Of a DNA stretch of 64,000 bases, positions 55,201-61,200 are shown piece by piece (position 1 is the first letter of the stretch; every line of letters starts with the position of its first letter). Where the stretch lies: the NCBI RefSeq assembly GCF_041886205.1, contig NZ_CP169029.1. One strand, 5' to 3'. The position numbers are program-made. This DNA is from Escherichia coli (GTDB lineage Bacteria; Pseudomonadota; Gammaproteobacteria; Enterobacterales; Enterobacteriaceae).

Positions 55201-58200
55201 ATATTGCCGTAAAACTCCGGCGAGGTGTCCAGGTTGTGGTTGTAGTAATCCAGCCCGGCGTTCGCGAGGCGCTGCGCCTGAGATTCACTCAACGTGCCCA
55301 GCGTCATACACGCCTCCAGCCCCATCGCTTTTACCCCCTGCACCATTTGTTCCAGGTACGGCATATCGCGTTCGTGGGGATTCTTCCACGCCGCGCCCAT
55401 ACAGAAGCGCGTCGATCCTGCCGCTTTCGCTTTGCGCGCCGACTCCAGCACCTGTTCAACTTCCATCAACCGCTCGGCTTCCAGCCCGGTTTTGTAGCGC
55501 GAGCTTTGCGGGCAGTATTTGCAATCTTCCGGACAAGCTCCGGTCTTAATCGACAGCAACGTGCTGACCTGCACCTGACGAGGATCGAAATGCTGGCGAT
55601 GCACCTGCTGCGCTTCAAACAGCAGATCCAGCAACGGTTTTTCAAATAATTCTGTGACTTGCGACAATGTCCAGCGTGGGCGGTGAGCCATGGGGCTTCT
55701 CCAAAACGTGTTTTTTGTTGTTAATTCGGTGTAGACTTGTAAACCTAAATCTTTTCAATTTGGTTTACAAGTCGATTATGACAACGGACGATCTTGCCTT
55801 TGACCAACGCCATATCTGGCACCCATACACATCCATGACCTCCCCTCTGCCGGTTTATCCGGTGGTGAGCGCCGAAGGTTGCGAGCTGATTTTGTCTGAC
55901 GGCAGACGCCTGGTTGACGGTATGTCGTCCTGGTGGGCGGCGATCCACGGCTACAATCACCCGCAGCTTAATGCGGCGATGAAGTCGCAAATTGATGCCA
56001 TGTCGCATGTGATGTTTGGCGGTATCACCCATGCGCCAGCCATTGAGCTGTGCCGCAAACTGGTGGCGATGACGCCGCAACCGCTGGAGTGCGTTTTTCT
56101 CGCGGACTCCGGTTCCGTAGCGGTGGAAGTGGCGATGAAAATGGCGTTGCAGTACTGGCAAGCCAAAGGCGAAGCGCGCCAGCGTTTTCTGACCTTCCGC
56201 AATGGTTATCATGGCGATACCTTTGGCGCGATGTCGGTGTGCGATCCGGATAACTCAATGCACAGTCTGTGGAAAGGCTACCTGCCAGAAAACCTGTTTG
56301 CTCCCGCCCCGCAAAGCCGCATGGATGGCGAATGGGATGAGCGCGATATGGTGGGCTTTGCCCGCCTGATGGCGGCGCATCGTCATGAAATCGCGGCGGT
56401 GATCATTGAGCCGATTGTCCAGGGCGCAGGCGGGATGCGCATGTACCATCCGGAATGGTTAAAACGAATCCGCAAAATGTGCGATCGCGAAGGTATCTTG
56501 CTGATTGCCGACGAGATCGCCACCGGATTTGGTCGTACCGGCAAACTGTTTGCCTGTGAATATGCAGAAATCGCGCCGGACATTTTGTGCCTCGGTAAAG
56601 CCTTAACCGGCGGCACAATGACCCTTTCCGCCACACTTACCACGCGCGAGGTTGCAGAAACCATCAGTAACGGCGAAGCCGGCTGCTTTATGCATGGGCC
56701 AACTTTTATGGGCAATCCGCTGGCCTGCGCGGCAGCAAACGCCAGCCTGGCGATTATCGAATCCGGCGAATGGCAGCAGCAGGTGGCGGCTATTGAAGTG
56801 CAGCTGCGCGAGCAACTGGCACCAGCCCGTGATGCCGAAATGGTTGCCGATGTGCGCGTACTGGGGGCAATCGGTGTGGTCGAAACCACTCGTCCGGTGA
56901 ATATGGCGGCGCTGCAAAAATTCTTTGTCGAACAGGGTGTCTGGATCCGGCCTTTTGGCAAACTGATTTACCTGATGCCGCCCTATATTATTCTCCCGCA
57001 ACAGTTGCAGCGTCTGACCGCAGCGGTTAACCGCGCGGTACAGGATGAAACATTTTTTTGCCAATAACGGGAAGTCCGCGTGAGGGTTTCTGGCTACACT
57101 TTCTGCAAACAAGAAAGGAGGGTTCATGAAACTCATCAGTAACGATCTGCGCGATGGCGATAAATTGCCGCATCGTCATGTCTTTAACGGCATGGGTTAC
57201 GATGGCGATAATATTTCACCGCATCTGGCGTGGGATGATGTTCCTGCGGGAACGAAAAGTTTTGTTGTCACCTGCTACGACCCGGATGCGCCAACCGGCT
57301 CCGGCTGGTGGCACTGGGTAGTTGTTAACTTACCCGCTGATACCCGCGTATTACCGCAAGGGTTTGGCTCTGGTCTGGTAGCAATGCCAGACGGCGTTTT
57401 GCAGACGCGTACCGACTTTGGTAAAACCGGGTACGATGGCGCAGCACCGCCGAAAGGCGAAACTCATCGCTACATTTTTACCGTTCACGCGCTGGATATA
57501 GAACGTATTGATGTCGATGAAGGTGCCAGCGGCGCGATGGTCGGGTTTAACGTTCATTTCCACTCTCTGGCAAGCGCCTCGATTACTGCGATGTTTAGTT
57601 AATCACTCTGCCAGATGGCGCAATGCCATCTGGTATCACTTAAAGGTATTAAAAACAACTTTTTGTCTTTTTACCTTCCCGTTTCGCTCAAGTTAGTATA
57701 AAAAAGCTGAACGCGAAACATTAAAAACCATTAATATCAATGTGTTACAATATCTTTAGTCTAAAAAATAGACTACATGATGCTACAAAACACAACATAT
57801 CCAGTCACTATGAATCAACTACTTAGATAGTATTAGTGACCTGAGACAGAGCATTAGCGCAAGGTGATTTTTGTCTTCTTGCGCTAATTTTTTGTTATCA
57901 AACATGTCGCACTCCAGAGAAGCACAAAGCCTTGCAATCCAGTGCAAAGATTTGTGTGCCTCAGTTTTGTCTAAGTGTTCTACTGAAAACATAGTAAAAT
58001 CGGCAACAGCTGGAAATCATTCAATACTCGCACTATCGAAAGTTCACCAGCCAACCGCAGCACGTTCTTGCATACGACGTGCTGCGGTTTTCTTTATGAT
58101 TTATGCACAATGGACAATTTGAAATTATTGATGATTGTATGGTGCATCGTTTTCTGAACCTACACTGATTTTTTGGTATAGCCTTGCCTAGCCAGTCTTA

Positions 58201-61200
58201 CCGGATCAAACTCTTCGCTATTGCAATACTAACCAAAATCATCAATTTGACAGCGATTAACCAGAATAATAGTATACTATCACCAGTAAGAAATTATCGT
58301 TATTTGTAGCGATACATATTATATATATATCATTCTCAGGTGCGTACATGATTATCAACCAGGTACCTATAAAAATAAAAATCTTCATCTTTTTATTTTC
58401 ATGCATCTCTATTATATTTTTGTTACTGCATGAAAATAATGGAATATACATAACACAAACAACACAAATAAGTTATAGTGTTTTCATTATTGGGCTTTTT
58501 TTCATAAACCTGATGATTTTTATTTTTCTATTGCTTTACTATGTTTCTAATCAGAGACAAAGTTATCTCTTAATTCTTTCATTCGCGTTTTTGAGCAACA
58601 CGTATTATTTATTAGAAGTGGCTATTATTTCTTTATCTCCGTTAGGTAACGATTTATCTACAATCTATCAGAAATCAAATGATATCGCAATATATTATCT
58701 ATTCCGTCAGCTCAGCTTTATATCTATAATCTTTCTGGCTGTTTATTCCACCAATGTTAAAAATAAAAGTGTTTTAGAAGATAAAAGAAACATAATAATT
58801 GTTGTTTTGTCAATATTAATTCTTTTTATTACTCCGTTTGTAGCAAAAAATCTAAGCAGTGACAATATAAAATATAGTCTTAATATTATACAATACTCGC
58901 TGAATCGTCATTTGCCGACGTGGAATATCGTGTACACCAAAATAATATCAGTATTTTGGCTTGTATTACTTATCAGCTCATGCATCAGCATACGTAATTA
59001 CTCAAAAATATGGTTGTGTATAATACTTATTAGTATAGTGTCAGTATGCAATAATCTAATTTTATTGTATTTTATTGATAAATCCCATCCTGCATGGTAC
59101 ATGACAAAATTTCTTGAGTTGATATCAATGATTTATATCATTTCAACACTCATGTATTATGTTTTCAGGAAATTAAATCATGCTAATCATATGGCAATTC
59201 ATGATCCACTAACGAATACATACAATAGAAGATACTTTATTGACTCATTGAAGAATATATCAAAACACCATGATTTCTCAGTAATAATGTTAGATATTGA
59301 CAGTTTCAAAAGCATCAATGACAAATGGGGGCATCATATGGGTGATCAAGTCATAGTAATGGTTACCAGAATAATAAAAAAATCCATCAGGAAAGAGGAT
59401 ATATTAGGGCGCTTAGGCGGTGAGGAGTTCGGTATTATCATTAAAGGTAATACTCAAAAGCTCTTGCTATCAATTGCAGAGCGAATCAGAAAAAACATTG
59501 AAGAGCAATGCTCGGAAAAATTATTATCGCATGGACCTGAGAAAATAACTGTCAGTATTGGTTGCTTTACTTCAAAAGAGAATAATCTCAGCCCATCTGA
59601 AATGTTAGTCAATGCCGATAAAGCGTTATATCAAGCCAAAAGAACCGGAAAAAACAAGGTGATAATTCACTCAAAATAAACACCTTTTTAAAATACAGCC
59701 CCAATAAACTGCAGAATATTATCCCATATAATATCCTGCAGTTCGTAATGCACTATTCGATAATGGGTACTGTTGGCCATTCAATATCCGGTGCAGTTGT
59801 TGTATTAACACGGTTCAGCAACACCCGATATTTTTTCCAGGCTTCCAGCAATGAGGTTTCTTCCTCCGTTGCGATCTCCAGATCTACAGCATCCTGAAGT
59901 GGCGCTATATGCTCACTGGCTACCTGCATCAGGCTGTTTTTTGTTTCTTCCGCCTCCCGGATCCGGAACAGTTTTTCTGCTTCCGTATCCTTCACCCAGG
60001 CTGTGCCGTTCCACTTCTGATATTCCCCTTCCGGCGATAACCAGGTGACATTTTCCGGTAACGAGCCAAGTTCAGAAATAAATAACGCGTCGCCGGAAGC
60101 CACGTCATAGACGGTTTTTCCCCGATGATCTTCAACGAGATGCCACGATGCCTCATCACTGTTGAAAACAGCCACAAAGCCAGCCGGAATATCTGGCGGT
60201 GCAATATCGGTACTGTTTGCTGGCAGACCTGTATGAGGCGGAATATATGCGTCACCTTCACCAATAAATTCATTAGTTCCGGCCAGCAGATTATAAATTT
60301 TTATGGTCCGTGGTTGTTCACTCATTCTGAATGCCATTATGCAAGCCTCACAATATAGTTAAATGCGATGTTTTTGACGGTGTTTTCCGCGTTACCAGCA
60401 GCGTTAACGGTGATGGTGTGTCCATGTGAACCAATCGCAACGGAGTGCGTGTGTGCACCAATACCGACAGTATGTGCGTGTGCACCTGCAGATGCTGCTG
60501 TGCCGGACAGTGAGTGGCTATGGTTACCATCTGTACTGGTATTAGCTAACGCCCCCGTAGACATACCTACTGAGCCTTGTACACCCCAGGTATTTTGACC
60601 TGAGCTTGTATAACCATATTGATAAGTATCTTTAAAAACACTGGGGTTAAATCGACGGCCATCTCTATGGCTGTGATTACCAGCTGCATTCGTGCTGCCA
60701 CTTAAACTATGGGTATGATGCGCACCAGTGTTATTCGTGGATTTAGTGCCGTAATCAAACGACGATGTGGTTTTCGTCCCCAAATCAGTACTGGATGCGC
60801 TGGCGCTGTGGGTATGCGATTTTATGCCGTCCTGTTCCTGAGACAATACGGCACGACCACTGGCGGGCTTGCCCTTAATCGTCCAGCCACGCATAGCTGA
60901 ATGACGTCACCAGCCCCAGTGTGTCCGTAAACTCATAACGGTATTTCACGTTAATCCCGTTCAGATCATCACTGCCGGGGACGTTCGTCGAGGCATGAAG
61001 ATACCCCGCGCTCAGCGTGGACTGATGTTCAGACGCCCATGCAGGCGCACCGGATACGGCCAGACAAATGGCTGCGGACAAAATTGCTGCACAAACTTTA
61101 CGCATAATTACCTCTCGCTTTTCTGCAATAAAAAAGGCGTCATTCCTGACGCCCTTTATTGGGGTTATAAATATTTCAACGAATACTGATGCCGGAAGCG

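Follow-up and report, generated by a model that had tools for sequence, protein, structure and literature searches.

The stretch of Escherichia coli DNA analyzed here (64,000 nucleotides of contig NZ_CP169029.1, assembly GCF_041886205.1; in the following called the window) carries dgcX, a gene for a diguanylate cyclase, i.e., an enzyme which makes cyclic di-GMP (c-di-GMP), a second messenger. The explanation which accounts best for the observations as a whole, and which we regard as highly probable, is that the gene is an allele of dgcX, that its product is a membrane diguanylate cyclase, and that it is a cargo gene in the b-region of a decayed prophage at the lambda attachment site (att). The gene is an intact allele of the already known dgcX, and finding it is an ordinary re-identification rather than a discovery. 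What is added here is incremental: the position of dgcX internal to the right attachment site (attR), its linkage to a tail-fibre module over several att sites, its prevalence, the purifying selection acting on it and its survival in a dead prophage.

DgcX was first described from the 2011 O104:H4 outbreak strain and strain 55989 (PMC4287979), and is defined in the outbreak strain, 55989 and HUSEC041 (Richter 2014, PMC4287979). It was described with intact A- and I-sites (the active site and the product-inhibition site) and an N-terminal domain of about 270 amino acids (aa) with eight predicted transmembrane helices (PMC4287979). The reference for our comparison was strain 55989 (NC_011748.1), in which the gene EC55989_RS04220 (WP_000586343.1, 443 aa) is flanked by tfa and ybhB. 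The protein of the window is identical to it at 437 of the 443 positions (98.6%) with zero gaps. The six substitutions, given with the window residue first, are L122F, P190S, I194T, K245Q, S319N and I440T; they spare D316, K321, N324, D333, R355, GGEEF, K431 and RKED, and position 319 is variable, being N in 55989, H in DgcT and Q in CdgI. The DNA from ybhB to tfa (57600-59760) is ~99% identical to 55989, and the 640 bp 5' of the start codon contain five differences, none of them in the candidate -35 and -10 hexamers. An earlier note on this DNA, made from the sequence alone, had proposed DgcX as the identity of the gene and had named low identity to DgcX and a degenerate active site as grounds for abandoning the proposal; neither applies, and with both the GGEEF and the RKED motif intact the identification stands.

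The coordinates of the gene and of the other features of the region are collected in Table 1. The earlier note had let the gene run from 58100 to 59679; the end is correct and the start is not, as 58100 adds 248 bp of non-coding DNA 5' of the ATG. By coincidence 58100 is the left edge of the low-GC (guanine plus cytosine) cassette in which dgcX resides. RefSeq labels the identical reading frame 'sensor domain-containing diguanylate cyclase'. The same note's description of a low-GC open reading frame (ORF) of 443 aa is right: the GC content of the coding sequence is 0.299 and all three codon positions are low, compared to 0.34 in the cassette upstream of dgcX, 0.548 in bioB-ybhB and 0.479 in tfa. 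Along the ORF the GC content dips to 0.27-0.31 versus ~0.55 in the adjoining bio genes, and the chromosomal part of the window has 51% GC versus 30% in the dgcX ORF.

Table 1. Features of the dgcX region (positions in the window)
Feature	Position	Strand	Basis or remark
attR core GCTTTTTTATACTAA	57693..57707	-	identical to the 15-bp lambda att core; sole copy in the window
Phage-side att arm (P arm)	57708..58097	+	homology to phage attP, 390 bp
sib/tI-like hairpin with U-run	~57853-57888	+	-27.2 kcal/mol, z -6.5
Terminator-like hairpin, 14-bp stem, followed by UUUUCUUU	58053..58095	+	-24.7 kcal/mol, z -4.9
Candidate sigma-70 promoter, TTGACA, 17-bp spacer, TAGTAT	58247..58275	+	10/12 positions match the consensus
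dgcX coding sequence	58348..59679	+	six-frame ORF list; ATG start; 443 aa and stop
MASE4 integral-membrane domain	58465..59169	+	Pfam PF17158, residues 40-274, E 1.3e-35
GGDEF catalytic domain	59194..59658	+	Pfam PF00990, residues 283-437, E 5e-44
I-site RKED (RxxD), product-inhibition site	59389..59400	+	residues 348-351
A-site GGEEF	59416..59430	+	residues 357-361
Inverted repeat, likely two-way terminator	59707..59743	.	in the 73 bp separating dgcX from the convergent tfa gene
tfa, tail fibre assembly, 194 aa	59753..60337	-	PHROG 105, E 6e-100; constant neighbour of dgcX
Decayed tail genes stf, lom, J, I	60337..63901	-	ORFs and comparison with the 55989 prophage

The two Pfam matches confirm a MASE4-GGDEF architecture, and the C-terminal GGDEF domain with an intact GGEEF motif, which had been noticed before, is borne out. 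The general GGDEF model of NCBIfam (TIGR00254) gives 161.9 bits against a cut-off of 37.4, none of the NCBIfam equivalog models reaches its own cut-off on the protein, and PHROGs recognizes the GGDEF part only. RKED is followed by ILGRL and then by GGEEF, which places RxxD five residues upstream of the A-site, as in an I-site. PleD and other diguanylate cyclases of solved structure match the GGDEF domain together with the helix preceding it (E ~1e-24), and the residues expected to bind metal and GTP in PleD-type enzymes are all kept (D316, K321, N324, D333, R355, GGEEF at 357-361 and K431). The roles of these residues we take to be those of PleD, on the basis of the conserved motif pattern rather than of a structural superposition.

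The N-terminal part was modelled with AlphaFold2, both in the full-length protein (alignment of 23 family members, predicted local distance difference test (pLDDT) 81.8) and as MASE4 alone (alignment of 14 members, pLDDT 82.4, predicted template modelling score 0.84). The two models agree on eight helices (residues 8-27, 40-67, 72-96, 103-134, 146-168, 194-214, 220-241 and 249-284), which form a bundle spanning residues 8-284. The eighth helix leads on into the GGDEF domain, and a small beta-hairpin (181-193) is found in the loop that joins helices 5 and 6. N111, W192, W204, W222, N236, W250 and E257 in this part of the protein are invariant. The hydropathy plot shows seven peaks at or above the threshold of 1.6; the earlier estimate of about eight transmembrane helices agrees with the model. 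Given eight helices and a GGDEF domain in the cytoplasm, the N-terminus is expected to be cytoplasmic as well. Lysine and arginine are mostly found in the predicted cytoplasmic loops (68-71, 135-145 and 215-219), and several are also present in predicted periplasmic loops. A Foldseek search matched the fold only in MASE4 cyclases of Enterobacterales.

dgcX is internal to the prophage and has the position of the lambda b-region. The order is ybhB (57126-57602), att core, P arm with sib, dgcX and tfa. The core GCTTTTTTATACTAA is found once in the window at one mismatch or less, and zero times in 100 shuffles. The P arm is 93% identical to the attP region of HK106, 95-98% identical to that of HK97 and 89% identical to that of lambda, and the annotated sib site of HK97 corresponds to 57846-57895 of the window. 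The homology to HK97 and HK106 stops at 58097. In these phages tfa follows ~120 bp past the end of the homology, after unrelated DNA with no gene, and in the window the 1.65-kb dgcX cassette (~58098-59752) fills this gap; because HK97 and HK106 hold only geneless DNA there, dgcX is dispensable for phage growth. Over 57600-64000 the genome wlxctx60 matches the window at 99.98% identity, and its two att cores, 18.6 kb apart, flank an element running from int and xis to tfa and dgcX. Its second core, between ybhC and int, is the left attachment site, attL; that of the window falls outside the window. Thus the att core on the ybhB side, P-arm and sib sequence on the side of dgcX, and the two cores which bracket the wlxctx60 element place dgcX inside the prophage. 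The wording of the earlier note, which had put the gene in the b-region between attR and tfa, is literally correct. The literature describes dgcX as 'directly adjacent to' prophage DNA and proposes hitchhiking by specialised transduction (Richter 2014, PMC4287979); the position inside attR refines this placement. As the cassette is self-contained, low in GC and situated between the sib region by attR and tfa, we regard dgcX as a cargo gene ('moron') of the b-region.

The carrier is a remnant only. That there is a prophage at the lambda att site is right, as had been claimed, with the qualification that its tail genes are truncated: of stf the C-terminal 185 aa are left, lom is reduced to 76 aa, J has lost its N-terminus (an ORF of 783 aa) and I is truncated and overlaps J. 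Compared to the prophage of 55989 the window lacks ~3 kb across stf-lom and ~1.5 kb across I-J, and in wlxctx60 RefSeq annotates these same four genes as partial or frameshifted. The whole element in wlxctx60 has no head or terminase genes and is a mosaic with emrE, an ompC-like porin gene and trkG. At this end of the prophage dgcX and tfa are the intact survivors. The Rfam family IS009 matches at 59796-59994 on the minus strand (225 bits, gathering score 117), wholly within the tfa coding sequence; the likely reason is that conserved tfa DNA of prophages went into the making of this family, and not that there is a separate RNA gene.

The candidate promoter of dgcX listed in Table 1 is the best consensus match in the region, and its hexamers are identical in 55989. 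The hairpin at 58053-58089, with its 9-nt loop and the U-run behind it, was skipped by the terminator scan and was folded separately. Behind the gene, the inverted repeat folds with -15.8 kcal/mol on the plus strand (z -5.8) and with -22.1 kcal/mol on the minus strand (z -4.8), where a U-rich run follows; judged from these properties it is likely a bidirectional terminator for dgcX and tfa.

In the mechanism which we propose DgcX would be anchored in the inner membrane by the eight-helix MASE4 domain, the last helix leading into the cytoplasmic GGDEF domain. By analogy with PleD-type enzymes the two GGDEF domains of a dimer would condense two GTP to c-di-GMP at GGEEF, and c-di-GMP bound at the RKED I-site would cap the output. 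The gene would use its own promoter, 3' of a terminator-like hairpin that should block transcription coming from the att side, and, as a self-contained low-GC cargo of the b-region, it would have outlived the decay of its lambda-att prophage. The extra c-di-GMP is expected to favour cellulose or other matrix and to reduce flagellar motility. For the window allele we infer the enzymatic activity, the dimerisation and the promoter assignment. Strong expression and GGEEF-dependent phenotypes have been shown in the literature: expression of dgcX is very high, with contributions of both RpoD and RpoS (PMC4287979), and overexpression of DgcX increases cellulose and decreases motility, both effects being lost in GGAAF and GGEAF mutants (PMC10459773). 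Mutation of E360, alone or together with E359, abolishes the phenotypes, and E359A alone keeps residual activity (PMC10459773).

Of 5,426 complete E. coli genomes, 786 (~14.5%, about one in seven) contain the dgcX region, and dgcX is therefore not rare; in 657 of the 786 the identity over 58100-59750 is at least 99%. The earlier note had associated the gene with enteroaggregative E. coli (EAEC) and O104:H4-type strains. The match to 55989 agrees with this, and the counts show that the gene is not confined to such strains. The ybhB-attR-dgcX junction is found in 589 complete genomes and the dgcX-tfa junction in at least 616. Plasmids searched with the dgcX region gave no match.

On the protein level the relatives within Escherichia are graded: a 99% cluster of 6,087 sequences is followed by groups at 85%, 81-83%, 67-68% and 51-52% identity, the last including E. 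albertii. More distant are Citrobacter proteins at ~42% (40-43% by alignment) and DgcT- and CdgI-like proteins at 35-40%. All DgcX-like relatives, at identities of 51% and above, retain RxxD and GGEEF. The 85% variant is located between torT and tfa, in a prophage at torS/torT with baseplate-type tail genes, and therefore the dgcX-tfa unit crosses between prophages of different tail types; in the contigs concerned (L013-L015, 8001-9992) a tfa gene of 194 aa lies 75 bp away, with baseplate-J, sheath-initiator and wedge genes. The 81% variant is next to bluF/bluR (icd-region site) and is followed by tfa, stf, lom and J. The 51% variant, with uspF on one side and ynaE-pinR-stfR on the other, occupies the att end of a Rac-type prophage. 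On the DNA level the window shares 57762-60522 (90%) with the torT-site prophage and 57986-60895 (87%) with the prophage on the bluF side; judged from these extents the common unit consists of the sib-proximal region, dgcX, tfa and stf. Comparison of the window gene with the variants at 85% and 81% gives a ratio of non-synonymous to synonymous substitution rates (dN/dS) of 0.12-0.13, with similar values for the MASE4 and the GGDEF halves. Since the synonymous rate dS is 0.6-0.7, these are old lineages under purifying selection. dgcX is thus under purifying selection and retained even in wrecked prophages.

The 67% variant lies between ybcH and argU, i.e., at the DLP12 attachment site, where no phage genes are left. 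In CP057162.1 (L007/L008, 1571-9714) it is found directly 3' of nfrB-nfrA-ybcH, and the tRNA-Arg(TCT) gene argU, the site where K-12 carries the DLP12 prophage, is 300 bp away. This copy could be the last remnant of a prophage, or it could be a local cyclase for the c-di-GMP-dependent polysaccharide synthase NfrB. A functional linkage of nfr and dgcX was rejected, as the adjacency is most simply that of a prophage remnant at the argU/DLP12 site; it is kept as a lead of low probability.

The GC-rich hairpin immediately 5' of the dgcX cassette, an element of 41 bp (58051-58091 in the window), is a dispersed repeat in E. coli genomes. It is found at 97.6% identity downstream of the Rac-type relative of dgcX (L010, 9629-9670), near intR/xisR in many genomes, and in the IMG/VR contig L018 at 1911-1951; it may be a recombination hot spot which moves the dgcX cassette between prophages. 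Contig L018 carries intR, the hairpin, dgcX and tfa, and it resembled the excised attP form. This interpretation was rejected: the junction is present in no complete genome, and the 41-bp repeat is the only overlap of the two halves. The contig is best explained as an assembly join via the repeat or as an unverified recombinant.

Some points weigh against the explanation given at the beginning. The 50,697 phage records of INPHARED, searched with DNA and with protein, contain no dgcX and no MASE4-GGDEF gene: megablast with 57690-59760 matched only the att/sib part (query 1-410), and tblastn gave only distant GGDEF domains below 40% identity with no MASE4. IMG/VR gave 16 fragments and no complete phage, and the 10 of them which were compared with the window resemble pieces of prophage edges. 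Because dgcX is missing from INPHARED and IMG/VR has fragments only, its packaging into virions is undocumented, which is not to say that absence from these collections proves absence from virions. Promoter-like sites are not enriched in the AT-rich region (12 found versus 12.8 in shuffles). In the papers on DgcX that were consulted an enzyme assay with purified DgcX was not found, and activity is deduced from genetics and motifs; six residues set the window allele apart from those studied experimentally, and its activity is a prediction from the sequence. Finally, deletion of dgcX in Fec101 had minor effects, and overexpression did not raise CsgD (PMC10459773). As to the effect on biofilm and curli foreseen in the earlier note, the link to curli is weak in the literature, in view of the CsgD result and the deletion (PMC10459773).

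The reading of Richter 2014 (PMC4287979), which is also stated in PMC10333796, is that dgcX is host-type DNA beside the prophage, spread by specialised transduction, and not internal to a phage. That no sequenced phage genome has the gene would agree with this, and so would the 67% relative between ybcH and argU with no phage genes around it. We nevertheless find this reading quite improbable: the att core separates ybhB from dgcX, the 390 bp of P arm and sib are on the dgcX side, and in wlxctx60 everything from int to dgcX is bracketed by the two att cores. In a transducing phage of the lambda-bio type the host DNA is found on the int side of att, and such transduction would not put host DNA between sib and tfa. 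Furthermore, the dgcX-tfa-stf unit is common to prophages with different integration sites, and the argU copy lies exactly at the DLP12 attachment site and is oriented as a prophage remnant. A different objection concerns the protein, which might be a catalytically dead receptor or scaffold for c-di-GMP like CdgI (YeaI), a MASE4-GGDEF protein of 37% identity which binds c-di-GMP via its I-site. Against this stand the metal- and substrate-binding residues, all present in DgcX, and the finding that DgcX phenotypes need the GGEEF motif (PMC10459773), and we consider it extremely improbable. It is also conceivable that dgcX now serves no function and is carried along, silent or decaying, in a prophage that is dead. 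The prophage around it has decayed heavily, the comparison with 55989 gives six non-synonymous and two synonymous differences (dN/dS ~0.8, from tiny counts), and the minor effect of the Fec101 deletion (PMC10459773) points the same way. The ORF is, however, of full length with intact motifs, the upstream DNA is ~99% identical to 55989, the deep comparisons give the low dN/dS of 0.12-0.13, and the near-identity in 657 of the 786 genomes argues for retention; this alternative therefore appears very unlikely.

Two further proposals concern the benefit of the gene. The selected role of dgcX could be in conflicts between phages or between phage and host, c-di-GMP altering cellulose, poly-N-acetylglucosamine (PGA) or the NfrB-dependent glycan receptor of phage N4, and hence superinfection. 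This role is compatible with the cyclase mechanism and concerns only why a phage carries dgcX. It would suit the finding that in prophages at several sites dgcX is consistently linked to the end with tail fibre and att, and also the one 67% relative directly 3' of nfrB-nfrA-ybcH; NfrB is reported to be a c-di-GMP-dependent exopolysaccharide synthase needed for infection by N4 (PMC8669469, PMC8669472). On the other hand, the PADLOC defence models gave no family at E <=0.001 on DgcX, the argU/DLP12 attachment site close by accounts for the adjacency to nfr, and no experiment ties DgcX to phage sensitivity. We therefore think this role unlikely. A broader formulation, to which we attach a low probability, is that DgcX-type MASE4-GGDEF genes are a long-standing phage family of lysogenic-conversion cargo, tied to the module proximal to the tail fibre and att, moving among prophages with different integrases and kept after the death of the prophage, the benefit being a c-di-GMP-dependent reshaping of surface and matrix which affects superinfection. 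The integration sites involved may be lambda att, HK022 att at torS/torT, the icd region, Rac, argU and argW. This is at variance with the literature, which treats DgcX as a host gene hitchhiking beside prophages.

The remainder of the window holds some features which do not touch dgcX. From ~650 to 14000 there is an apparent remnant of a CP4-like integrative element next to glnPQ, judged from the annotation of the matching genome GF60, whose genes there include an AlpA regulator, an inovirus Gp2-family protein, a YeeP-like GTPase, DUF932, an antirestriction protein, RadC and a YeeU/CbtA toxin-antitoxin pair. At least 80% of window 1-25000 is covered in only 3 of the 5,426 genomes, at ~93% identity. 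ARAGORN predicts a tRNA-Ser(GCT) gene at 25864-25948 on the minus strand, at a place where none would be expected from the K-12 map. A molybdenum cofactor (Moco) riboswitch is located upstream of moaA (47979-48123, minus strand), and the small RNA families naRNA4 and ES036 match on the plus strand at 23107-23177 and 49388-49429, respectively. The riboswitch and the two small RNA families are expected and fit an ordinary bio-uvrB-moa neighbourhood.

For the strains which carry it, DgcX adds a strongly expressed source of c-di-GMP. A contribution of DgcX to the adherence of EAEC and O104:H4 and to their proneness to form biofilms has been discussed, and recognizing the gene is useful for annotation. 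The closest known system is DgcX of 55989, which has the same 443 aa, MASE4-GGDEF architecture with GGEEF and RxxD equally placed, ~99% identical upstream DNA, and the same locus in a lambda-att prophage, with ybhB/attR on one side and tfa on the other. It differs by the six substitutions and by its carrier: in the window prophage most of stf is gone, as are part of lom and the junction of I and J; furthermore the 55989 prophage has head and tail genes, with the gene for the terminase large subunit annotated as frameshifted, whereas its counterpart in wlxctx60 is without head genes.

Two proteins of K-12 share the MASE4 and GGDEF-type domains. DgcT (YcdT) also has intact GGEEF and RxxD motifs, but it is only 35% identical, and its gene is chromosomal, adjoins pgaA, is not part of a prophage and contains 39% GC versus 30%. 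With this identity and a locus other than next to the pga operon, the window gene was rejected as an orthologue of dgcT. DgcT is reported to be very weakly expressed and repressed by CsrA, and dgcX to be very strongly expressed (PMC4287979 for dgcX). CdgI, which has an intact I-site, differs in its degenerate A-site and in a longer N-terminus (491 aa in all), and is reported to be a c-di-GMP binding protein via the I-site and not a cyclase.

With respect to its carrier, dgcX resembles the morons of the b-region and tail-fibre region of lambdoid phages, such as lom and the ea genes of lambda, in being self-contained, with promoter- and terminator-like signals of its own and atypical GC content, and in being inserted between conserved phage functions (sib/att and tfa). 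It is unlike these in that no isolated, sequenced phage carries it and in the nature of the cargo, which combines a membrane sensor domain with the synthesis of a second messenger.

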